This document shows, piece after piece, positions 3 through 63,260 of a DNA stretch of 64,000 bases; position 1 is the first letter of the stretch; each line of letters begins with the position of its first letter. Source of the stretch: Bacteroidales bacterium (GTDB lineage Bacteria; Bacteroidota; Bacteroidia; Bacteroidales; GCA-2748055). The position numbers and the translations under genes are program-made. The DNA lies in assembly GCA_029210585.1 (NCBI GenBank), contig JARGFP010000012.1, positions 44,512 through 108,511 on the forward strand, given 5' to 3'. The notes below the pieces were generated by a model. The model worked only from the letters and a program-made list of their open reading frames with translations, did not search any database and had not been told where the DNA came from.

Positions 3-761
3 GCCGACCTGACAGATCCATATTTTGAAACGGTATTCAATGAAGCTGCGCGCATGTATGAAATCACTGGCGGGGCGTTTGATATCACTGTGGGACCCCT
101 GATCGATGCCTGGGGATTTGGCCGGGGAGGAAAGATGGAGATGACCGGCGAGGTGATCGACAGCCTGATGCAGTATGTGGGTATGCCGAAAGTGAGGATC
201 GAAGGCAGCCGGGTCATCAAGGACCTCCCGGAGATCCGCCTGGACGTGAATGCCATTGCCCAGGGCTATGCCGTGGATGTGATGGCGGCATTCCTCGACG
301 ATCTGAAAATACGAAATTATATGGTGGAAATCGGCGGGGAGCTCACTACCAAAGGGCTGAGCCCGCGGGGGGACCACTGGAGGGTCGGTATCGACAAGCC
401 TTCATTCGGAAACCTGGTGCCCGGTCAGGACCTCCAGGAGGTGGTTGCACTTTCCGGACAGTCGCTGGCCTCATCGGGCAACTACAGGAAATTCTACGAA
501 GTGGACGGTCAGAAAATCGTCCACACCGTTGACCCCACCACCGGGTATACAAAAATGAGTAACCTGCTCAGTGTTACGATTATTACCGAGGATTGCATTA
601 CTGCCGATGCGCTTGCCACCTCCTGCATGGTGCTGGGGCTTGAGGAAGCAAAAAAGCTGATCGAGTCACAGGAGGGCGTCGAGGCGCTGCTCATTTTCAC
701 CGACGATGACGGGCTCTACCTGGAATGGGCCACGGATGGGATGAAGTCACTGATGCAGTGA
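3..761 (+). CDS. apbE: FAD:protein FMN transferase (ApbE family), 5' end cut by window edge
   Basis: The frame is open from base 3. ApbE-like motifs are present: AQGYAVD and SGNYRKF...VHTVDPTTGY. Confidence 0.8.
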   Translation, partial: ADLTDPYFETVFNEAARMYEITGGAFDITVGPLIDAWGFGRGGKMEMTGEVIDSLMQYVGMPKVRIEGSRVIKDLPEIRLDVNAIAQGYAVDVMAAFLDDLKIRNYMVEIGGELTTKGLSPRGDHWRVGIDKPSFGNLVPGQDLQEVVALSGQSLASSGNYRKFYEVDGQKIVHTVDPTTGYTKMSNLLSVTIITEDCITADALATSCMVLGLEEAKKLIESQEGVEALLIFTDDDGLYLEWATDGMKSLMQ

Positions 762-1473: not shown

Positions 1474-3879
1474 ATGGAAAGTAAACGGATCAACTTATCC
1501 CGGGAAGAAATATTGAAGGATTTTCAACTGGCGTACCTCAGTCGCCAGGTGGCTGTGCTCGGACGCAAGGAAGTACTGTCGGGCAAGGCCAAGTTTGGTA
1601 TTTTCGGTGATGGAAAAGAGGTGGCCCAGATTGCCATGGCAAGGAATTTCAGGAATGGCGACTGGCGCTCCGGGTATTACCGTGATCATACCTTCATGAT
1701 GGCCGCCGGGATGTTCACTCCCGAACAATTTTTCTACCAGTTATACGGACATACCGATGAACAGATGAATCCCGGAACAGCCGGAAGAAATTTCAACAAC
1801 CACTTTGCCTCGCTGAGCCTGAAAGAGGACGGCTCGTGGAACGACCTGGCTGCCATGAAGAACACAGCGGCGGACCTTTCACCCACAGCCGGACAAATGC
1901 CGCGCCTGATTGGGCTTGGCTATGCATCCAAATTATACCGTGAGAATGAAGCGTTGCACCAGTACACCCATTTTTCGAACAAGGGAAACGAGGTGGCTTT
2001 CGGAACCATCGGTGATGCCAGTACCGCCGAGGGGATGTTCTTCGAGACCATCAATGCTGCAGCCGTGCTGCAAATACCTGTGGCCCTCGCGGTATGGGAT
2101 GATGGGTACGGGATCTCGGTAACCAAAGACAAGCAGATCGTCAAGGCAAGTATTTCAGAGGCGCTGAAGGGCTTTGAAAAGAATGGGAACAGCAATGGAA
2201 TCGAGATCATGCATGTACGCGGATGGAACTACCCGGAGTTGATCGACGTCTTTGAAAAGGGAATCGCAACATGCCGCAACACCCATGTCCCGGTGCTGTT
2301 CCACGTGGATGAGATGATGCAGCCCTTTGGTCACAGCACCTCCGGAAGCCATGAAAGATATAAATCGACCGAGCGGCTCGAATGGGAGAGGCAACACGAT
2401 CCCCTGCTGAAAATGGAACAGTGGATACTCGATGAGGGCCTGGCCACTGAAAAAGAGCTGGAAAAACTGAAGGACCGTGCTGCAACTGAAGCACGCAAGG
2501 CGCGTGACAAAGCCTGGAAGGATTATTCTGAGCCGATCAGGAAGGAACGGGATGAGCTGCTTGCCATTATCGATGGCAGAACCTGCCGGTGCGAGCAGGA
2601 AGATGTGGACAAGCTGGGGATCCTCAGCAAGGACCTCAAGCGTATCATGCATCCCATCCGTAAAGATGTGCAATCCACCGCCAAGCGGATCATGCGCAAC
2701 CTCTGCCATACCTGTCCCGTGCGTGAAGAACTGCAGGATGCCATTTCAGCATGGCTCAATGCATACAAGGAAAAGAATTATGAGCGGTACAGTACAAAAT
2801 TGTACAACGAGACCGACCGTTCCGCATTGAAGGTGCAACCTGTTGCCCTTGAAACCGATGACAAAGAAGTGATGAACGGCAGGGAGATCATCCGCGACAA
2901 CTTTGATGCACTGTTTGCAAAAAATCCCCTGCTGGTGACCTTCGGGGAGGACTCGGGCAAGATTGGTGATGTGAACAAGGGGCTCGAGAGCCTGCAGGAT
3001 AAATACGGGGAATTGCGCGTGACAGATACGGGGATCCGTGAGACCACCATCATCGGACAGGGTATCGGACTGGCATTGCGTGGTCTGCGACCCATTGCAG
3101 AAATACAATATTTTGATTACCTCCTGTATGCACTTGCCACCCTGAGCGACGACCTGGCTACCCTGCACTGGCGCACAAAAGGAGCCCAGGCTGCCCCGGT
3201 GATCATCCGTACACGCGGACACCGGCTGGAGGGCATCTGGCACTCCGGTTCACCGCTCAGCATGGTGATCAATTCCATCAGGGGAATCTACGTGTGCGTG
3301 CCCCGGAACATGACCCAGGCAGCCGGGATGTACAACACCCTGCTGGAAGCGGACGATCCGGCACTGGTGATTGAACCACTGAAGGGCTACGGGCTCAAGG
3401 AACCCAAACCTACGAATTTCGGGGAGTTCAGGGTGCCACTCGGACAACCGGAGATACTGGTGGAAGGTACGGACCTGACCCTGGTCACCTATGGGTCATG
3501 TGTCAGGATAGCAGAAACAGCAGTGAAGCAACTGGTTGAGTTCGGCATCAGTGTTGAACTGATCGATGTGCAGACCCTGCTGCCTTTCGACCTGGAGGGG
3601 ACCATCGGCAAATCTGTGGCAAAGACCAACAAGGTGGTGTTCTTCGATGAAGATGTACCCGGCGGCGCCACGGCATTCATGATGAAGCATGTGCTGGAGG
3701 ACCAAAAGGCCTGGTTCGACCTGGATGCCGAACCCAGCACGCTTTCGGCCCATGAACACCGGCCGGCATACAGCTCCGACGGCGACTACTATTCCAATCC
3801 CAATGCCGAGGATGTGTTTGAGACCGTATATGCAATCATGCACGAATACAATCCGGAGAAATACCCGGCGATCTACTGA
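1474..3879 (+). CDS. fused E1 alpha/beta 2-oxoacid dehydrogenase (TPP-dependent)
   Basis: The 801-aa chain has an E1-alpha-like N-terminal half (GDASTAEG region). Its C-terminal half is E1-beta/transketolase-like (GIRETTIIGQGIGLA, IIRTRGHRLEGIWHSGSP). No E2 or E3 gene is adjacent. Confidence 0.8.
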   Translation: MESKRINLSREEILKDFQLAYLSRQVAVLGRKEVLSGKAKFGIFGDGKEVAQIAMARNFRNGDWRSGYYRDHTFMMAAGMFTPEQFFYQLYGHTDEQMNPGTAGRNFNNHFASLSLKEDGSWNDLAAMKNTAADLSPTAGQMPRLIGLGYASKLYRENEALHQYTHFSNKGNEVAFGTIGDASTAEGMFFETINAAAVLQIPVALAVWDDGYGISVTKDKQIVKASISEALKGFEKNGNSNGIEIMHVRGWNYPELIDVFEKGIATCRNTHVPVLFHVDEMMQPFGHSTSGSHERYKSTERLEWERQHDPLLKMEQWILDEGLATEKELEKLKDRAATEARKARDKAWKDYSEPIRKERDELLAIIDGRTCRCEQEDVDKLGILSKDLKRIMHPIRKDVQSTAKRIMRNLCHTCPVREELQDAISAWLNAYKEKNYERYSTKLYNETDRSALKVQPVALETDDKEVMNGREIIRDNFDALFAKNPLLVTFGEDSGKIGDVNKGLESLQDKYGELRVTDTGIRETTIIGQGIGLALRGLRPIAEIQYFDYLLYALATLSDDLATLHWRTKGAQAAPVIIRTRGHRLEGIWHSGSPLSMVINSIRGIYVCVPRNMTQAAGMYNTLLEADDPALVIEPLKGYGLKEPKPTNFGEFRVPLGQPEILVEGTDLTLVTYGSCVRIAETAVKQLVEFGISVELIDVQTLLPFDLEGTIGKSVAKTNKVVFFDEDVPGGATAFMMKHVLEDQKAWFDLDAEPSTLSAHEHRPAYSSDGDYYSNPNAEDVFETVYAIMHEYNPEKYPAIY

Positions 3880-3958: not shown

Positions 3959-5485
3959 TTAATAATCCTTTCGGTCTTCGTCGCTGATCACCTTTCCTTC
4001 CGGTTCATCGTCGCTGAACCTTCGGATCCTGTAGTTGATGGCTGCGAACAGGATACTGAACATCGGGCTCAGGATATTAAAGAAGGCGAAGGGAATATAT
4101 TCCACCGTAGGAACGCCCAGTACCCTGGATTGTGTGGCGCCGCAGGTGTTCCACGGGACCAGCACGGAGGTGATCGTCCCGCCGTCTTCCAGGGTCCGGC
4201 TCAGGACCTCCGGTTTCAGTCCACGCTCCTTGTAGGTGGAGGCAAACATCCGGCCCGGCACCACGATGGAGATATACTGGTCGGAAGCTGTAATATTGAA
4301 GAATATACTGGTGCCGATCGTGGTGGCCACCAGGGAGCCGGTGGAATTGGCAAACCTGATCACTGAACGTGTGATCTTTTTCAGCATCCCGGCCGATTCC
4401 ATGGTTCCGCCGAATACCATGGCAGAGAGGATCAGCCAGATCGTCGACAGCATGCCCGCCATGCCGGATGTCGTGAGCAACTCATTGACCATCTCGTTGC
4501 TGGTGGCAATGCTCAGATTACCATAGATGGCCTGCATCACACTCATATAGGCCGCTTTGAAAAAACTCTGCGTTCCCGGTTCCAGCGTCATGCCCACTTC
4601 CCTTACCAGGTGCGGCTGGAAGATCAGGGCGAAAACGGCACCGATCAGCGAACCAAACAGCAGGGAGGGCAGGGGGGGTACTTTCTTGATGATCACGAAC
4701 AACAGCAGGGCCGGCACCAGCATCAGCCAGGGGCTGACAACGAAGCGCCCGTCAATGGCTGCCAGCACCAGGTCGATATCGCTGAGTTCCGCGTTGAAAT
4801 CGTAGGTGAACCCGATGACCAGGAAAATGATGAGCGTAAGGACCATGGCCGGGGTGGTAGTAATGGCCATGTACCTGATGTGGGTAAAAAGATCGGTTCC
4901 CGCCATGGCAGGGGCCAGGTTGGTGGTGTCGCTGAGCGGTGACATCTTGTCGCCGAAATAGGCGCCCGAGATGACGGCCCCGGCAACAATGCCCTGGCTG
5001 ATCCCAAGCGTGGTGCCGATGCCAACCAGCGCAATACCCATCGTGGCAATGGTCGACCAGGAACTTCCTGTTGCAAGGGAAACCACGCCCGCAATGATCA
5101 CGGTGGCAAAAAGAAAGATACTGGGATGGAAGATTTTCAGTCCATAATAGATGAGCGTGGGGACAACGCCGCTCAGCATCCAGGTGCCTGCCAGGGCACC
5201 GATCATCAGGAGGATCAGGATCGAGGGCATGGCCGAACTGATGCTTTTCACGATGCTTTCCCGGATGCCCGTCCACTTGTGGCCCAGGCTTACAGAAATA
5301 ATTCCCGCTACAGCAGCCGCAAGGATCAGTGCGAACTGGTTGGCACCGTCCAGGGTGTGGTCACCAAAATACAATACATTCAGTGTGAGCAGCGCGATCA
5401 GCACAAGGATCGGGATGAGAGCCTGTACGAGGGTAGGTTGTTTCTGCTTACTTTCCTCCATGCATGCGCGGAATTTGGGACGCAA
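3959..5485 (-). CDS. nhaC: Na+/H+ antiporter, NhaC family
   Basis: The 508-aa polytopic membrane protein has an NhaC-like N-terminus and glycine-rich helices. The start could instead be the internal ATG at 5461. Confidence 0.85.
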   Translation of the reverse strand: MRPKFRACMEESKQKQPTLVQALIPILVLIALLTLNVLYFGDHTLDGANQFALILAAAVAGIISVSLGHKWTGIRESIVKSISSAMPSILILLMIGALAGTWMLSGVVPTLIYYGLKIFHPSIFLFATVIIAGVVSLATGSSWSTIATMGIALVGIGTTLGISQGIVAGAVISGAYFGDKMSPLSDTTNLAPAMAGTDLFTHIRYMAITTTPAMVLTLIIFLVIGFTYDFNAELSDIDLVLAAIDGRFVVSPWLMLVPALLLFVIIKKVPPLPSLLFGSLIGAVFALIFQPHLVREVGMTLEPGTQSFFKAAYMSVMQAIYGNLSIATSNEMVNELLTTSGMAGMLSTIWLILSAMVFGGTMESAGMLKKITRSVIRFANSTGSLVATTIGTSIFFNITASDQYISIVVPGRMFASTYKERGLKPEVLSRTLEDGGTITSVLVPWNTCGATQSRVLGVPTVEYIPFAFFNILSPMFSILFAAINYRIRRFSDDEPEGKVISDEDRKDY

Positions 5486-56223: not shown

Positions 56224-56333
56224 GCTGAATGCTTCAATCCAGGTGTGTGAGCAGGTCGCCTGATACGAAAGTGCTGTCGCTGAACGCTTCAACCCAGGTG
56301 TGCCAGCAGGTCTGCCACCACGAATGTACTGCC
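56224..56333. repeat. 55-bp tandem duplication spanning the folC 3' end and stop codon (2 copies + possible remnant upstream)
   Basis: Copy 56224-56278 matches copy 56279-56333 at 42 of 55 positions by my count. Both carry the TCA (reverse TGA) stop at the same offset. Confidence 0.85.
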
Positions 56334-57590
56334 GCCAATGAAGATCGTATCTTCTGCTTTGGCGGCCAGGGTGGCAGCCTGGTAAGCCTTCCCGACGGTT
56401 GCATGAGCCGACCCAGGGAGTCCGTTCATGGCAGCATGCTCAAGCAGTGTTTCCAGGGGCATGGCGCGGGGAATGGAAGGTTGGGTGAAATAATACGCTG
56501 CGTTTCGCGGAAGATACCGGAAGATCGTTTCCACGGGCTTGTCGCCGACCATTCCCCATACAATATGCAGTTGCCTGTGGGGTACCTGTTGCAGTTGTTC
56601 CATCACCACCTGTACGCCCGAAGCGTTGTGTGCCGTGTCGCAAATGATGCGCGGATTGGCACCCAGGAGCTCCCATCTTCCCCTGATGGAGGTGTTTTTC
56701 TTTACATTCCCGAGTCCATTGCTGATCGCAGGACCCGGGATGATCCATCCCCTTTGTTGCAGTACCTTGATGGTGGTCAGCACCAGGCTCAGGTTTTCGT
56801 GCTGGTAGGTGCCGGTGAGATCGGAGGTATAGGATTCTTCCGACTGGCTTTCGATGTTCCGGAAATGAAAAATGGCTTGTTGCCCGGTGGTATATGTCTG
56901 AAAGGTGAAGGTGCGTTCCTGTGCTGCAAAGTGAATGGGACTGTTTTTTTGTGCAGCCACATTCCTGAATACATCGCAGGCTGCATCGTTGTTGCTTCCA
57001 ACGGTAACCGGCACATTGTCCTTGATGATCCCGGCTTTCTCAGCTGCAATGAGTGTTTCCGTGTTGCCCAGGAATTCTGTATGGTCCAGCGAGATGCGGG
57101 TGAGTGCGGATACTTCCGGGGTGATGATGTTCGTGGAGTCCAGCCTCCCGCCCATGCCGGTCTCAATGACCGCAATATCGACCTTTTCCCTGGCAAAATG
57201 ATCGAAGGCCATGGCCACTGTCATTTCGAAAAACGAAGGCTGGACCCTGTCGATCACCTCCCGGGAGCGTTCAACAAACCCAACCACATGGTCTTCACTG
57301 ATCATCATTCCGTTGATGCGGATCCGTTCCCGGAAATCGACCAGGTGCGGCGAAGTATACAATCCCGTCCGGTATCCGGCTTCCTGCAGCACAGATGCAA
57401 GCATATGACTTACAGAGCCTTTGCCGTTGGTGCCGGCGATGTGCACCGAGCTGAAATGCCTGTGGGGATGCCCCAGGGCCAGGTCCAGTGCATGCGTATT
57501 GTCGAGGTTGGCCTTGTAGGCGGCTTTCCCGGTACGCTGGTACATGGGCAGACTGCTGAAGAGGAATTCGATGGTTTCGGCGTAATTCAT
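56289..57590 (-). CDS. folC: bifunctional folylpolyglutamate synthase / dihydrofolate synthase
   Basis: The start is taken at ATG 57590 (MNYAETIEFLFS). The P-loop (HIAGTNGKGS) and a Mur-ligase-like core are present. The 42-codon upstream extension is rejected. Confidence 0.9.
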   Translation of the reverse strand: MNYAETIEFLFSSLPMYQRTGKAAYKANLDNTHALDLALGHPHRHFSSVHIAGTNGKGSVSHMLASVLQEAGYRTGLYTSPHLVDFRERIRINGMMISEDHVVGFVERSREVIDRVQPSFFEMTVAMAFDHFAREKVDIAVIETGMGGRLDSTNIITPEVSALTRISLDHTEFLGNTETLIAAEKAGIIKDNVPVTVGSNNDAACDVFRNVAAQKNSPIHFAAQERTFTFQTYTTGQQAIFHFRNIESQSEESYTSDLTGTYQHENLSLVLTTIKVLQQRGWIIPGPAISNGLGNVKKNTSIRGRWELLGANPRIICDTAHNASGVQVVMEQLQQVPHRQLHIVWGMVGDKPVETIFRYLPRNAAYYFTQPSIPRAMPLETLLEHAAMNGLPGSAHATVGKAYQAATLAAKAEDTIFIGGSTFVVADLLAHLG

Positions 57591-57767
57591 CGACGCGTTA
57601 TTTGGGACCCCGGATTTTGGAATGGATCCAGTGCAGGGGTGTCTCTTTTTGCATGGTTGATAACTCTGTTTAAAACTTAATTGAATGTGAATAAAACCTT
57701 CATGGGAAGGCCTCAAATGTTGTTAATTTTGAAACCAGGAAATCTTTCCACTAAGGCAGGGGCAAAT

Positions 57768-60384: not shown

Positions 60385-61899
60385 ATGTCCGGAAAACTAT
60401 TCAAACGTATACAGCTTTGGACGCTCATCACGGGTGTGGTCCTCGGGGGTGTATTGCTGCTGGGCTTCAACAAAGTTGTTGAGGCCACTTCCTCTGATGA
60501 ATTTTGCAACAAATGTCATTTCCACCCGCATGCTACCACTACCTGGAAGCAGGGTGTGCACTACAATACTGCATCAGGGACCATAGTGCATTGCGTGGAA
60601 TGTCACCTTCCGTCCAAGGGAGAGGGGTATCTTCCAGCGAAGGTGGTAACGGGGCTGCGCGATGTTTACGGAGCTGTTTTCAAGGATTCGGCAGACTTTA
60701 ACTGGGACCTCAAATCCCGTCCCGAAAATGCGGTTCATTTTACCAGGGATGTTTCCTGCGTCCATTGTCACCAGAACCTTTATCCCCTGGAGATCACACA
60801 TGAGGGAATGGATGCGCACCTCTATTATGAGCAGCAGGAAGGAGAGGTCTCCTGTATCAAATGCCACATCGATGCAGGTCATTACCACGAGGGAATCCTG
60901 CATGCTGCCAATGTTGAGTTCGGAACGTCGGAGGAGTTGCCCGACACGCTCTACCTGCAACCTGCCATTGTGGAGACCTTTGAAGATTACACCGAACGCC
61001 TTCCGCTGTCTGCTGTATCTTTCAACATGAAAGCCATCCCTGGCGGAACCTTTACCATGGGTGCGGGCGAGGAAGATCCATTTTCCCGGCCTGATGAACG
61101 GCCGGAGCGGGAAGTGACACTGGACCCGTTTTTCATGTCGGAGATCGAGGTGACCTGGGAGGAATACCTGACCTGGTACAGCCAGACATCGGGAGAGGGA
61201 AGGACCACCGATATCGGGATGCTGGAAGGGATCGACGGACTGTCGGGAGCCACCCCTCCCTACGGGAATCCGGACCAGGGATGGGGCAAGGGGAAGCGGC
61301 CGGCCATTACCATGACCTATTATGCTGCTGAAAAATACTGCGAATGGTTGTCGCTCGTGACGGGCAAGACCTACAGGCTTCCCACGGAGGCAGAATGGGA
61401 GTATGCCGCCAGGGGAGGGACAAAAGGACCCTATTTCTTTGGAGGCGAGGTAAAAGACTATGCCGATGTGGGATTGCGGGCCAGGCTGTTCGGCGTGGAT
61501 ACCACGGTGATCAACAGTTACGCAGTGTATATACAGAATTCTGAAGGGCGGTCCCAACTGCCCGGGGCGGTCCGTCCCAATCCTTTCGGACTAAAGAATA
61601 TGCTCGGAAATGTTGCAGAATTCTGCCAGGATATATATATTGAGGACGCTTATTCCCAATATCCCGGACCGGTAGCAAATCCTGTTGTTGTTGCAGGAGG
61701 AAATGAGCACGTGATCAGGGGAGGATCTTTCCTCAGCGATGCCGCTGAACTGAGGGTATCTGCCAGGAACAAGACGAATCACGACTCCTGGCTCAGGACA
61801 GATCCACAGATCCCCAAGAGCCTCTGGTGGTACTCCGACTGCTACCATGTGGGGTTCAGGGTGGTTTGCGAATACGACGATCATTTAACTACTAAATAA
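60385..61899 (+). CDS. NapC/NirT-type tetrahaem cytochrome c fused to an FGE/SUMF1-fold domain
   Basis: There is one N-terminal TM helix (LWTLITGVVLGGVLLLGF). Four CxxCH motifs follow (CNKCH, CVECH, CVHCH, CIKCH). FGE-sulfatase-type blocks come next (IPGGTFTMG, YRLPTEAEWEYAARGG, NMLGNVAEFCQD, VIRGGSF, HVGFRVV). Confidence 0.8.
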   Translation: MSGKLFKRIQLWTLITGVVLGGVLLLGFNKVVEATSSDEFCNKCHFHPHATTTWKQGVHYNTASGTIVHCVECHLPSKGEGYLPAKVVTGLRDVYGAVFKDSADFNWDLKSRPENAVHFTRDVSCVHCHQNLYPLEITHEGMDAHLYYEQQEGEVSCIKCHIDAGHYHEGILHAANVEFGTSEELPDTLYLQPAIVETFEDYTERLPLSAVSFNMKAIPGGTFTMGAGEEDPFSRPDERPEREVTLDPFFMSEIEVTWEEYLTWYSQTSGEGRTTDIGMLEGIDGLSGATPPYGNPDQGWGKGKRPAITMTYYAAEKYCEWLSLVTGKTYRLPTEAEWEYAARGGTKGPYFFGGEVKDYADVGLRARLFGVDTTVINSYAVYIQNSEGRSQLPGAVRPNPFGLKNMLGNVAEFCQDIYIEDAYSQYPGPVANPVVVAGGNEHVIRGGSFLSDAAELRVSARNKTNHDSWLRTDPQIPKSLWWYSDCYHVGFRVVCEYDDHLTTK

Positions 61900-61904
61900 T
61901 ACCA

Positions 61905-63260
61905 ATGGATAAAAAATCAGTTTCAAGAAGAAATTTCCTGGGCACCACAGCAATTGGCGCAGCCGGGATTGTAGGTGTGGCCGGACTGGCTGCGTCATGT
62001 TCAGAAAAAAAAGTACAGGTCTCTTTTGTGCCGCCTCCCCTCAAGGCGGATGACGGCCAGCCCATCAGGGCTGGAGTGATAGGCTGCGGAGGAAGGGGTA
62101 CCGGCGCCGCTGTTGATTTTTTGAATTCAGGAAGCAACCTGGAAATTGTAGCCGCCGGCGACCTGTTTGATGACAAGATGAAACGTTTTCGTGACAGCCT
62201 GAAAAACCAGAAGGATGTTGAGCTGGCCGATGAAAAGTGTTTTGTCGGATTTGATGCATATGAAAAGGTGCTGGCCGAGGATATCAATTATGTGATCATT
62301 GCCACGCCGCCGCATTTCCGGCCCATGCAGTTCGAAGCCGCAGTAAAGGCCAGGAAGAATGTTTTCATGGAAAAACCGGTGGCAGTTGACCCGGTAGGTG
62401 CCCGCAGGATCATAGTGGCCGGGAAACAGGCCGCATCCATGGGACTCAGCGTGGTGGCAGGAACACAGCGTCGTCACCAGTGGAACTACCTGGAAATGTA
62501 TGAGCATGTGAAGGCAGGGGCCATCGGAGATTTTGTTGCAGGATATGCTTACTGGGACCAGAACAAACTCTGGCACGTGAATCCGGATCCCGCATGGTCG
62601 GAGATGGAAGCCATGGTAAGGAACTGGGTCAACTGGCTCTGGCTTTCAGGCGACCATATCGTGGAGCAGCATGTACATAATATCGATGTGATCAACTGGT
62701 TCAAAGGAAATGTGTATCCCATCCAGGCCGTTGGATACGGAAGCCGCCAACGCAGGGTAACCGGTGACCAGTACGACAATTTCTCGGTTGATTTCATTTA
62801 CGAGGACGGAACACATATGCACTCCATGTGCCGCCAGATCAATGGCACCCATGGGAATGTCTCTGAGTATATTATGGGAACGAAAGGCCGGACCAACTGT
62901 GCCAGCAAGATCTATGGTCACGACGGCACCGTGCTTTCTGAAACCACAGATAACCCCTGGCCCGATACCGATGAAGGGAAAAAAGCGCTGAATGAGAAAT
63001 ACAATTCACCTTATGTCCAGGAGCATATCCACCTGGTCAATGCCATCCGCACGGGTACGCCGGTGAATGAGGCTGAAAACGTGGCGTCTTCCACCCTGAC
63101 CGCGATCATGGGACGAATTTCTGCCTATACAGGCAAGCGGACCACGTGGGATGAGATGATGAACTCGGAGGTACATTACCAGCCCGAAGTATATGATTTC
63201 GGACCGGTAAGTGGAGTGCCAACAGATGTTCCGGTACCTGGCGAAGCTGCCGAAGCATAG
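61905..63260 (+). CDS. Gfo/Idh/MocA family oxidoreductase with twin-arginine signal (probable lipoprotein)
   Basis: A Tat-type leader is present (SRRNFLGTTAIGAAGIVGVAGLAASC). It is followed by a Rossmann motif (GVIGCGGRGTGAA) and EKP. The gene starts 5 nt after the cytochrome-FGE gene. Confidence 0.85.
   Translation: MDKKSVSRRNFLGTTAIGAAGIVGVAGLAASCSEKKVQVSFVPPPLKADDGQPIRAGVIGCGGRGTGAAVDFLNSGSNLEIVAAGDLFDDKMKRFRDSLKNQKDVELADEKCFVGFDAYEKVLAEDINYVIIATPPHFRPMQFEAAVKARKNVFMEKPVAVDPVGARRIIVAGKQAASMGLSVVAGTQRRHQWNYLEMYEHVKAGAIGDFVAGYAYWDQNKLWHVNPDPAWSEMEAMVRNWVNWLWLSGDHIVEQHVHNIDVINWFKGNVYPIQAVGYGSRQRRVTGDQYDNFSVDFIYEDGTHMHSMCRQINGTHGNVSEYIMGTKGRTNCASKIYGHDGTVLSETTDNPWPDTDEGKKALNEKYNSPYVQEHIHLVNAIRTGTPVNEAENVASSTLTAIMGRISAYTGKRTTWDEMMNSEVHYQPEVYDFGPVSGVPTDVPVPGEAAEA

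Follow-up and report, generated by a model that had tools for sequence, protein, structure and literature searches.

A conserved gene pair links a tetrahaem cytochrome–FGE-fold fusion protein to a Tat-exported Gfo/Idh/MocA oxidoreductase and suggests a respiratory outlet for periplasmic sugar oxidation

The window analysed here, a 64,000-nucleotide stretch of Bacteroidales DNA, contains two adjacent genes that suggest an undescribed route by which electrons from periplasmic sugar oxidation reach respiration. ORF A (60385..61899, + strand; 504 aa) begins with a transmembrane anchor and a tetrahaem NapC/NrfH-type domain, which a linker joins to a PvdO-like FGE-fold domain in the same polypeptide. 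ORF B (61905..63260, + strand; 451 aa) is an NAD(P) oxidoreductase of the Gfo/Idh/MocA type, Tat-exported and probably lipid-anchored, with matches to PF01408 and PF22725. We narrowly favour a reading of the pair as a self-contained periplasmic respiratory dehydrogenase, in which electrons would pass from the NAD(P)H of the Gfo protein to an FMN on Thr290 of ORF A, then through four haems and into menaquinone. No earlier description of this module was found in the literature. Periplasmic Tat-exported Gfo enzymes bind NAD tightly and can be re-oxidised by small hydride acceptors, and their in vivo re-oxidation route is stated as open (10.1101/2024.03.25.586180; PMC8121099). Such enzymes are many in Bacteroidota, Planctomycetota and Verrucomicrobiota, where they have lately been tied to broad-specificity glycan breakdown, and the question of their re-oxidation is sharpest in anaerobes with only a menaquinone/fumarate chain. 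The module offers a concrete answer, with a putative flavin attachment site and a quinone-coupled tetrahaem domain in one partner.

Architecture of the fusion protein and its exported partner

The N-terminal anchor of ORF A (60415..60477, + strand; residues ~11-31) is the hydrophobic stretch LWTLITGVVLGGVLLLGF, which is covered by one long helix (residues 3-34) in the AF2 model and aligns with the membrane helix of NrfH. It forms part of a NapC/NirT/NrfH-type tetrahaem cytochrome c domain (60412..60882, + strand; residues 10-166) that is matched by Pfam Cytochrom_NNT (PF03264) with an E-value of 4.8e-26 and 92 bits against a cut-off of 24.1. The four CxxCH motifs (nt 60505-60519, 60592-60606, 60757-60771 and 60853-60867, + strand; C41-H45, C70-H74, C125-H129 and C157-H161) are all invariant in a 12-sequence family alignment, as are H47, H49, H59, H145, H166 and H173. 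Thus, the helix and the haem motifs described in the original prediction are confirmed, including the conservation of CxxCH on which it had made itself depend. A single N-terminal transmembrane helix, four CxxCH within ~160 residues and PF03264 are features shared with NrfH, NapC, CymA and cytochrome cM552, from all of which ORF A differs by its fusion to a 300-residue FGE-fold domain. K86 and D93, both invariant, align with the quinol-site residues Lys82 and Asp89 of NrfH, and the alignment fits a quinone-coupled module. Haem 1 has CxxCH-x-H-P-H rather than the CxxCHxM of NrfH, so the quinone site may differ from that of NrfH. Membership of a characterised NapC, NirT, NrfH or TorC subfamily was rejected, with scores far under the NCBIfam equivalog cut-offs (TorC 62 vs 478, NrfH 60 vs 134, NapC/NirT 51 vs 311).

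The C-terminal part of ORF A is an FGE-sulfatase-fold, PvdO-like domain (61033..61875, + strand; residues ~217-497), which is matched by Pfam PF03781 over residues 217-465 (E 6.1e-41) and modelled with pLDDT >90 across most of its core. PvdO (5hha), a periplasmic protein that dihydropyoverdine oxidation requires, is its best match in sequence as well as in fold (top Foldseek match, E 1e-17, TM 0.76 on target), and Foldseek also matches FGEs (E ~1e-15). ORF A was nevertheless rejected as a formylglycine-generating enzyme (FGE/SUMF1): the fold is present, but the Cu-binding catalytic cysteines after RGGS are missing ('GGSFLCHESYC' in FGE vs 'GGSFLSDAA---'). HMMER aligns 'GGSFLCHESYCNRYRV' of T. 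curvata FGE to 'GGSFLSDAA---ELRV' of ORF A, with both catalytic cysteines absent from the latter, and no conserved Cys occurs at the Cys-pair positions in the 12-sequence family alignment; the missing pair after RGGSF had been noted correctly from the outset. Analogously, assignment to PvdO itself (dihydropyoverdine dehydrogenase) was rejected, as the NCBIfam model NF051459 gives 101 bits against a cut-off of 500 and identity is ~27%, leaving PvdO as the closest fold only. PvdO resembles the ORF A domain in being periplasmic, in lacking the FGE catalytic cysteines and in its redox-linked role, but it has neither the inserted flavinylation-like loop nor the TDPQIPKSxWW signature, and neither a cytochrome fusion nor a Gfo partner. 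This C-terminal signature (T472-DPQIPKSLWW-482; 61798..61830, + strand) is clade-specific and was the basis for defining the clade: D473, P474, Q475, P477, K478, S479, W481 and W482 are invariant in fusions and FGE-only members. FMN binding or Gfo docking are our guesses at its role.

ORF B starts 5 nt past the ORF A stop codon and is matched by Pfam GFO_IDH_MocA (PF01408; 49.9 bits vs 24) and GFO_IDH_MocA_C3 (PF22725; 28.5 vs 27), with GCGxRGxGA, F.EKP and H..D..W conserved in 43 homologs. The twin-arginine signal peptide (61905..62000, + strand), with SRRNFLG and a lipobox-like AASC end at Cys32, reaches 20.6 bits with TIGR01409, whose cut-off is 16.7. RR.[FLIV] is present in 118/118 full-length homologs and a lipobox-like Cys, called by regular expression in ORF B and homologs alike, in 104 of the 118; from this pattern, ORF B is probably lipid-anchored. 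The exported 451-aa enzyme and its LAASC ending had thus been recognised correctly, and profile searches recovered the suspected domains, Cytochrom_NNT and FGE-sulfatase in ORF A and GFO_IDH_MocA in ORF B. A PDB sequence search gives inositol dehydrogenases, together with DgpA, a C-glycoside 3-oxidase, as the closest solved relatives. Neither a BT_2158-type glycoside 3-dehydrogenase nor IolG was retained as an identity for ORF B (BT_2158_fam 28 bits vs 750, iolG 74 vs 355).

Conservation of the gene pair and its cytochrome fusions

More than 7800 protein clusters (90% identity) match the fusion protein at E<=1e-5, and such cluster numbers are lower bounds, the two homolog searches being limited to 8000 scored candidates each. 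Among the 120 fusion matches listed, all have the FGE-sulfatase domain and 119 combine it with a NapC/NirT domain. It follows that the architecture of ORF A is not due to chance, and the cytochrome-FGE fusion is real and conserved. It is abundant in Bacteroidales and relatives, under generic names only; with no assigned function or publication found for it in literature and databases, the original remark that no characterised example was known still stands.

The Gfo gene lies immediately downstream of the fusion in 19 of 20 informative NapC-fusion loci and within the locus in all 20, which is the preferential adjacency to Tat-Gfo genes on which the original prediction had staked its case. The pair is moreover found in unrelated neighbourhoods across different genomes. 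Comparing the wider FGE clade with generic FGE proteins, the Gfo gene is present in 61/92 loci of the former vs 2/68 of the latter (Fisher p = 4e-18). The same PvdO-like clade also has unfused members, usually adjoining the same Gfo gene, in aerobic Bacteroidota and in further phyla. In MAGs of Verrucomicrobiota and Acidobacteriota, as well as several contigs from metagenomes, it is joined to a PSCyt1 cytochrome c (Pfam 1.9e-25 for PSCyt1 in locus L016). PSCyt1 is a cytochrome c type unrelated to the NapC-type domain. The PSCyt1-fused genes, too, usually have the same Gfo gene as neighbour. Fusion of one FGE clade to PSCyt1 as well as to the NapC-type domain points to c-haems as the acceptors of electrons from the FGE-like domain.

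A flavinylation-like motif and its link to apbE

A loop of the FGE-fold domain (residues ~270-299) contains a putative ApbE flavinylation motif, D284-G-L-S-G-A-T290 (61234..61254, + strand), with Thr290 as the predicted FMN site. DGLSGAT is an exact match to the motif D-x-x-[S/T]-G-A-[S/T] (review PMC12052999) and is situated C-terminal to the anchor and haem domain, on an extracytosolic segment. The loop is an insertion relative to PvdO, appearing as a gap in the alignment, and is left flexible by AF2 at low confidence (pLDDT <50). D284 is invariant, T290 is kept in at least 90% of sequences, and exactly one D..[ST]G[AP][ST] is found in 115/120 fusion homologs. Over 83 loci of the FGE clade, the loop consensus reads D-A-[VI]-[ST]-[G/R]-[P/A]-[T/S]-x-P-Y: Pro takes the place of Ala before the acceptor Thr in most members, including about half of the fusions, and Arg replaces the motif Gly in FGE-only members. 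Among documented ApbE substrates there is none with the Pro or the Arg variant. Neither generic FGE proteins nor the Gfo partner proteins contain the motif.

In the genomes, apbE is located at most 553 nt from the FGE/Gfo block in 25/92 clade loci vs 3/68 other loci (p = 1e-4), the three exceptions being clade members missed by the classifying regular expression. The products of these genes match ApbE in Pfam (7e-61), and across the 35 clustered loci there is no recurrent gene for any further known ApbE substrate. Among NapC-fusion loci, apbE is adjacent in only 1/23. The window holds an ApbE (FAD:protein FMN transferase; 3..761, + strand, its 5' end cut by the window edge) that is matched by Pfam PF02424 (E 1.2e-66) and by an HMM built from the locus ApbEs (E 2e-55). 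It lies ~60 kb from the pair and is linked to ORF A by genome content only; it would be the flavinylating enzyme, or it may serve Nqr or Rnf only.

Because the loop is clade-specific and carries an ApbE-type motif, and because the clade is linked to apbE, a redox relay is a more probable role for the FGE domain than a passive dock, to judge from these sequence patterns. The original prediction had offered a docking or substrate-binding unit for the exported enzyme; the non-canonical role it foresaw fits the missing Cys pair, the passive one is probably wrong. Its wider idea of a periplasmic dehydrogenase-to-menaquinone module fares likewise, being favoured by the gene pairing, the invariant CxxCH and the fit of K86 and D93, with the passive dock as the part that probably needs revision. 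More tentatively, and a little short of an even chance in our view, the PvdO-like FGE fold may represent an unrecognised ApbE-flavinylated class, whose tethered FMN would enter the Gfo active site, take the hydride and feed c-haems, NapC-type ones leading to menaquinone in anaerobic Bacteroidales and PSCyt1-type or soluble cytochromes in aerobes. With known ApbE-flavinylated carriers (NqrC, RnfG, PplA, DUF2271, DUF3570 and flavinylated Flavodoxin_4/FMN_red) the clade shares a protein outside the cytosol with a motif of the D-x-x-[ST]-G-A-[ST] type, a clustered apbE gene and an exchange of modules with cytochromes (PMC8238504, PMC11334425, PMC12052999). The clade differs from them by its FGE/PvdO-like fold, by the Pro of most and the Arg of many members inside the motif, and in that flavinylation is here predicted from the motif. 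An FGE/PvdO-like carrier fold is not named in the main text of two flavinylation surveys, and PF03781 has no entry in the portion of the first survey's supplement that was covered.

The proposed electron route and its alternatives

In the respiratory dehydrogenase that we favour, ORF B would fold with NAD(P) in the cytoplasm, leave via Tat and probably become lipid-anchored. It would then oxidise a substrate; the hydroxyl of a sugar, glycoside or cyclitol is the likeliest candidate, as we infer from the resemblance to its family and from a Tat TIM-barrel gene that is often a neighbour. For want of a periplasmic NAD(P) pool, the NAD(P)H would have to be re-oxidised where it is bound, with ORF A as the re-oxidising partner and FMN put on Thr290 of its flexible loop by ApbE. 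The tethered FMN could accept the hydride from bound NAD(P)H, thereby playing the part that the second substrate has in ping-pong enzymes of the GFOR type. It would pass electrons singly into the NapC/NrfH-type domain with its four c-type haems, and this domain, held by one transmembrane helix, would reduce menaquinone at an NrfH-like quinone site. By established midpoint potentials the path from NAD(P)H over FMN and haem to menaquinone is downhill, and the conversion of a hydride into single electrons, for which a direct NAD(P)H-to-haem link has no means, would fall to the covalent FMN. We know of no characterised case in which NAD(P)H held by one protein gives its hydride to a flavin tethered to a second one. 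ORF A would stand apart from the NapC/NirT family both in its proposed partner, an NAD(P) dehydrogenase instead of a reductase for nitrite, nitrate or TMAO, and in the proposed flow towards quinone. Among sugar-oxidising systems, LacABC/FAD-type glucoside 3-dehydrogenase and ThuAB also combine periplasmic oxidation and Tat export with bound cofactor with electron delivery to cytochrome c and the respiratory chain, and Zymomonas glucose-fructose oxidoreductase (GFOR), likewise exported by Tat with its cofactor, oxidises sugar in the periplasm with ping-pong re-oxidation of bound NADP (PMC8121099, PMC9007349). LacABC and ThuAB have an FAD/GMC-type catalytic subunit, whereas ORF B is NAD(P)-Gfo-type, and the cytochrome of ORF A is a NapC-type quinone-coupled tetrahaem that suits menaquinone-only anaerobes; all three systems differ from the module by its interposed FGE-fold, putatively flavinylated adaptor.

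The conserved pairing and the fusions are equally compatible with a cofactor-less FGE-like domain that only docks the Gfo protein or binds its substrate, so that NAD(P)H would reduce the haems, and through them menaquinone, directly. The FGE fold is structural in PorK/GldK, which occur among the fold and sequence matches, and the scarcity of apbE beside the fusions points the same way. We consider this unlikely while still granting it some weight: passing electrons from a two-electron hydride donor to one-electron haems without a flavin-like converter is chemically awkward by established enzymology, and it leaves unexplained the near-invariant D..[ST]x[PA][ST] loop with its exact ApbE motif in the window, as well as the apbE genes beside the clade's FGE/Gfo block where other ApbE substrates are absent. 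The proximity to PvdO in sequence and structure, the dihydropyoverdine dehydrogenase name of the NCBIfam model and an invariant signature suggesting a specialised pocket could instead mean that the FGE-like domain is itself a catalyst, a PvdO-like oxidase or dehydrogenase of a planar or catecholic substrate with haems or flavin as sink, and that the Gfo enzyme catalyses a distinct neighbouring reaction in the same periplasmic pathway. This appears improbable given the low PvdO equivalog score and the absence of pyoverdine-type genes near the pair; besides, a Tat-exported Gfo enzyme with bound NAD(P) still needs a re-oxidant, and no other candidate gene for this is conserved in the loci.

The direction of flow could also be reversed, with the NapC-type domain oxidising menaquinol and electrons passing via FMN and the Gfo protein to a periplasmic substrate, making the module a respiratory reductase. 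Characterised NapC/NirT/NrfH proteins are mostly quinol dehydrogenases, the NrfH quinol-site residues are conserved in ORF A, and electrons go outward to reductases in many ApbE-flavinylated systems (PMC8238504). For the unfused and PSCyt1-fused forms in aerobes, however, the natural direction is into cytochrome c and oxidases. By established potentials, menaquinol (~-74 mV) would have to reduce NAD(P)+ (~-320 mV) against a steep gradient, and the carbonyl reduction that Gfo enzymes carry out offers no high-potential sink, so that we regard a reductase as quite improbable. We give hardly any credence to ORF B being a redox-neutral NAD-dependent glycosidase (GH109-/GH4-like, or with BT2158-like internal recycling) that needs no partner and adjoins ORF A for co-regulation only. 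Tat-exported Gfo-fold enzymes recycling NAD internally do exist, and in 17/160 loci the pair is found together with a Tat TIM-barrel gene of the lyase/isomerase type. BT2158/AL3 glycoside 3-dehydrogenase and DgpA, of the 3-keto-glycoside pathways, resemble ORF B distantly in sequence, have a Gfo fold with a Tat signal as well, and often have a xylose-isomerase-like TIM-barrel partner gene nearby; there, however, NAD is recycled by reducing the 3-keto-sugar, while ORF B has a dedicated redox partner. No GH109 structure is found among the PDB sequence matches of ORF B at E<1e-3, its BT_2158 family score is far too low, and co-regulation leaves the repeated redox attachments (two cytochrome types and the ApbE link) unexplained.

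If the FGE-flavin reading is true, it would explain how periplasmic Gfo enzymes are re-oxidised and would amount to a general, very widespread way of making periplasmic NAD(P)-dependent sugar oxidation respiratory. Flavinylation of Thr290 would add a new fold to the ApbE substrates, and extracytoplasmic sugar oxidation could then directly aid energy conservation in gut and sediment Bacteroidales. It would also give a redox role to many protein clusters that at present carry a wrong label, either 'formylglycine-generating enzyme family' or 'nonheme iron enzyme'; an NCBI protein identical to ORF A (P0001; Bacteroidales MAG, contig JAVVEB010000018.1) is named 'SUMF1/EgtB/PvdO family nonheme iron enzyme'.

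Architecture of the fusion and its partner

ORF A (window 60385-61899, plus strand) encodes a 504-aa protein with two Pfam domains, NapC/NirT at residues 10-166 (E 4.8e-26) followed by FGE-sulfatase at residues 217-465 (E 6.1e-41). ORF B (61905-63260, plus strand) starts 5 nt past the ORF A stop codon and encodes a 451-aa protein comprising GFO_IDH_MocA and its C3 domain (Pfam), with a Tat signal that scores above the NCBIfam cut-off and a lipobox-like Cys assigned by regular expression match. Together with the four CxxCH motifs and the missing FGE-type Cys pair, these features confirm in every detail the two-gene architecture of the original prediction. A protein identical to ORF A is present in NCBI from the Bacteroidales MAG GCA_032250755.1, named there only 'SUMF1/EgtB/PvdO family nonheme iron enzyme'. 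A scan for sigma-70 promoters and terminators around the pair performed no better than on shuffled sequence, the sigma-70 model being ill-suited to Bacteroidota.

Several assignments were considered and rejected. Alignment of the FGE-like domain to FGE did not recover the catalytic Cys pair, ruling out a true FGE, and an EgtB/OvoA-type iron enzyme was dismissed as the weak matches are confined to the shared FGE-like domain and no DinB-type domain is present. NCBIfam scores of the pair for PvdO, GldK, TorC, NrfH, EgtB, IolG and the BT_2158 family were all far sub-threshold, excluding ORF B as a BT2158 or IolG ortholog, and GH109 was discarded after sequence comparison with solved structures.

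In the cytochrome part, the four CxxCH motifs (C41, C70, C125 and C157) are invariant in the family, as are six further histidines. The haem-1 motif (window 60505-60531, ORF A residues 41-49) is an invariant CxxCH-x-H-P-H, whereas NrfH displays CxxCHxM, a difference that suggests another axial ligation or quinone-site geometry in the ORF A subfamily.

Linkage of the FGE-like domain to Gfo and cytochromes

At a clustering level of 90% identity, over 7800 clusters match the fusion protein (E<=1e-5), with both domains present in 119 of the 120 matches listed; these thousands of independent sequences rule out an assembly artefact. At 50% identity, an exhaustive representative search recovered about five representatives of full-length fusions, and the family is therefore compact yet abundant. 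The same search returned no Gfo-FGE fusion and was dominated by giant tandem FGE-sulfatase proteins, for example a match of 4448 aa with 20 matched stretches (P0361). Separately, a Prevotellaceae locus (L054) harbors two proteins with two or three FGE domains and an N-terminal dockerin-like 'GDVNGDG..T..DVT' repeat; these two fall outside the Gfo-linked clade described below.

We then compared 80 genome and 80 metagenome loci, scoring six-frame ORFs with the cytochrome, FGE and Gfo parts of the window. NapC-type fusions were found in 23 loci, 20 of which had downstream DNA sufficient for judging Gfo: the dehydrogenase gene lies directly downstream in 19/20, and somewhere in the locus in all 20, while the genes flanking the pair vary between genomes. 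The orthologs are thus preferentially adjacent to Tat-Gfo genes, their CxxCH motifs are conserved, and no unrelated function has been assigned to the fusion family; comparative genomics therefore supports the idea of a periplasmic dehydrogenase-to-menaquinone module.

Relatives with 30-42% identity align over the whole FGE-like part of ORF A, and a C-terminal signature, TDPQIPKSxWW, is invariant throughout this PvdO-like clade. Members without any cytochrome occur in Pedobacter, Eudoraea, Chitinophagaceae, Saprospiraceae, Planctomycetota and Gemmatimonadota. Others bear at the N-terminus a single or double PSCyt1 'planctomycete cytochrome c' domain (CxxCH ... LMPP ... WI..GA.WP), whose haem c fold has no relationship to NapC. 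Such fusions were detected in MAGs of Verrucomicrobiota and Acidobacteriota (Bryobacteraceae) and on several unclassified metagenome contigs (genome loci L013, L016, L017, L021, L025 and L028; metagenome loci L103, L109, L113, L119 and L131), usually adjoining Gfo and sometimes ApbE as well. With membership set by sequence signatures, a regex that missed some members, Gfo is adjacent in 61/92 clade loci vs 2/68 loci of generic FGE proteins (Fisher p = 4e-18). Independent fusion to two different types of cytochrome c, in each case beside the same dehydrogenase, argues for a place of the FGE-like domain on an electron path between Gfo and the c-haems.

Two clade members, in L011 (Limisphaerales) and L108, instead carry a non-haem N-terminal extension of 400-480 residues, with Gfo still nearby. 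The former extension exhibits weak FG-GAP-like repeat matches, and the latter was likened to it by eye only.

A putative flavinylation site and its candidate transferase

ApbE, the FAD:protein FMN transferase, recognises D-x-x-[S/T]-G-A-[S/T] and esterifies FMN to the final residue (PMC12052999). The ORF A segment D284-G-L-S-G-A-T290 is an exact fit, and exactly one D..[ST]G[AP][ST] is found in 115 of 120 fusion homologs. Searching with a strict regex (D..[ST]G[APS][ST]) had made the motif seem confined to NapC fusions, a view overturned by alignment, in which the same loop recurs with R/P substitutions across the remaining clade; the consensus over 83 loci reads D-A-[VI]-[TS]-[R/G]-[P/A]-[T/S]-x-P-[YWF]. 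To our knowledge, no documented ApbE substrate has Pro for Ala or Arg for Gly in the motif. Neither generic FGE proteins nor the Gfo partners contain the motif. It lies in a segment with no counterpart in PvdO when the two are aligned, and AF2 places it in a low-confidence loop, 270-299, which is presumably flexible. The model employed was generated from a 112-sequence alignment (pLDDT 78 overall, >90 across most of the FGE-like core), an earlier one from 12 sequences having been discarded (pLDDT 42).

Clustering of neighbouring genes revealed ApbE as the third recurrent neighbour (Pfam E 7e-61). An apbE gene is located no more than 553 nt from the FGE/Gfo block in 25/92 clade loci vs 3/68 others (p = 1e-4), these three being clade members that the classifying regex missed, and no known ApbE substrate recurs in the apbE-linked clade loci in the same clustering. 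Only 1/23 loci with the canonical-Gly motif, including all NapC fusions, possesses its own apbE, vs 21/60 with the divergent Arg-type motif DAVTRP[TS] (p = 0.005). This hints that the divergent motif is served by a dedicated transferase and the canonical one by housekeeping ApbE; a specialised ApbE paralog may recognise the Arg-Pro variant. Within the window, apbE is not adjacent to the pair: a 5'-truncated copy (3-761, plus strand; Pfam 1.2e-66) lies about 60 kb away. Next to it come a fused 2-oxoacid dehydrogenase E1 alpha/beta-like gene (1474-3879) and then, on the minus strand, a gene of the Na+/H+ antiporter family (3959-5485).

Motif and apbE linkage together led us to revise one part of the original prediction: rather than as a docking or substrate-binding unit, the FGE-like domain most likely serves as a redox relay that bears a covalently attached flavin. 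FGE-fold substrates, Gfo and NapC are not mentioned in the main text of either large flavinylation survey, and no PF03781 entry occurs in the searched part of the first survey's supplement. Likewise, we found no literature linking NapC or cytochromes, an FGE domain, Gfo/MocA and ApbE, an absence of evidence only given the incomplete literature coverage. The system appears as a variant both of the complexes that dehydrogenases form with cytochromes in the periplasm and of carriers flavinylated by ApbE. It occurs widely, has no annotation and lends itself to direct testing.

Proposed electron path, alternatives and substrate

Tat-exported Gfo enzymes hold NAD(P) tightly, and the periplasm has no free NAD(P) pool. 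How they are re-oxidised in vivo is left unresolved by two papers on Bacteroides 3-keto-glycoside metabolism, according to which the menaquinone/fumarate-only chain of B. thetaiotaomicron probably precludes cytochrome c-dependent LacABC- or ThuAB-type dehydrogenases (10.1101/2024.03.25.586180; PMC8121099). Beyond the observed architecture, conservation and gene linkage, we infer a path in which oxidation of the substrate would turn the NAD(P)+ bound by Gfo into NAD(P)H. Bound NAD(P)H gives up hydride, haems take single electrons, and a flavin usually converts between the two; we therefore propose an FMN step: the hydride would pass to FMN on Thr290 of the loop, the second substrate of a GFOR-like ping-pong. 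Electrons would then proceed to the four c-haems, and menaquinone would be reduced at an NrfH-like site; the invariant K86 and D93 of ORF A align with Lys82 and Asp89 of NrfH, which we take to be menaquinol-site residues.

The closest fold to the FGE-like domain is PvdO (Foldseek E 1e-17, TM 0.76), which is required to oxidise a planar tricyclic chromophore by two electrons, rendering an isoalloxazine pocket plausible by analogy. The same fold match would suit a domain that is itself a PvdO-like catalyst, a role we nevertheless consider rather improbable. A passive docking domain devoid of cofactor would agree equally with the conserved adjacency to Gfo, and is unlikely in light of the motif and the apbE linkage. 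Reversed flow, from quinol to substrate, would employ the same haems and quinone site; since standard midpoint potentials and the aerobic lifestyle of hosts of the unfused and PSCyt1 versions favor the direction from substrate to menaquinone, it seems very doubtful. A redox-neutral glycosidase would be congruent with known Tat-exported Gfo-fold enzymes that recycle NAD internally and, next to the recurrent cytochrome fusions, is the most improbable reading. We favor the flavinylated relay, with moderate confidence.

Regarding the substrate, proteins distantly similar to ORF B include inositol dehydrogenases as well as DgpA and BT2158, which are glycoside 3-oxidases. The sole recurring additional gene beside the NapC fusion-Gfo pair encodes a Tat-signal xylose-isomerase-like TIM barrel (AP_endonuc_2), which often follows FGE-Gfo pairs (loci L001, L003, L006, L026, L031, L036, L037, L164 and others); the window contains no such gene. 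This fold is used by 3-keto-sugar lyases/isomerases of the DgpBC, LgdB and BT215x pathways. Similarity and neighbour together suggest that ORF B probably acts on a hydroxyl group of a sugar, glycoside or cyclitol.

Elsewhere in the window, a 483-aa ORF (56229-57680, plus strand) runs antisense to a FolC-like Mur-ligase gene (56289-57716, minus strand). The public record annotates the minus-strand gene, of which the 483-aa ORF is almost certainly a shadow.
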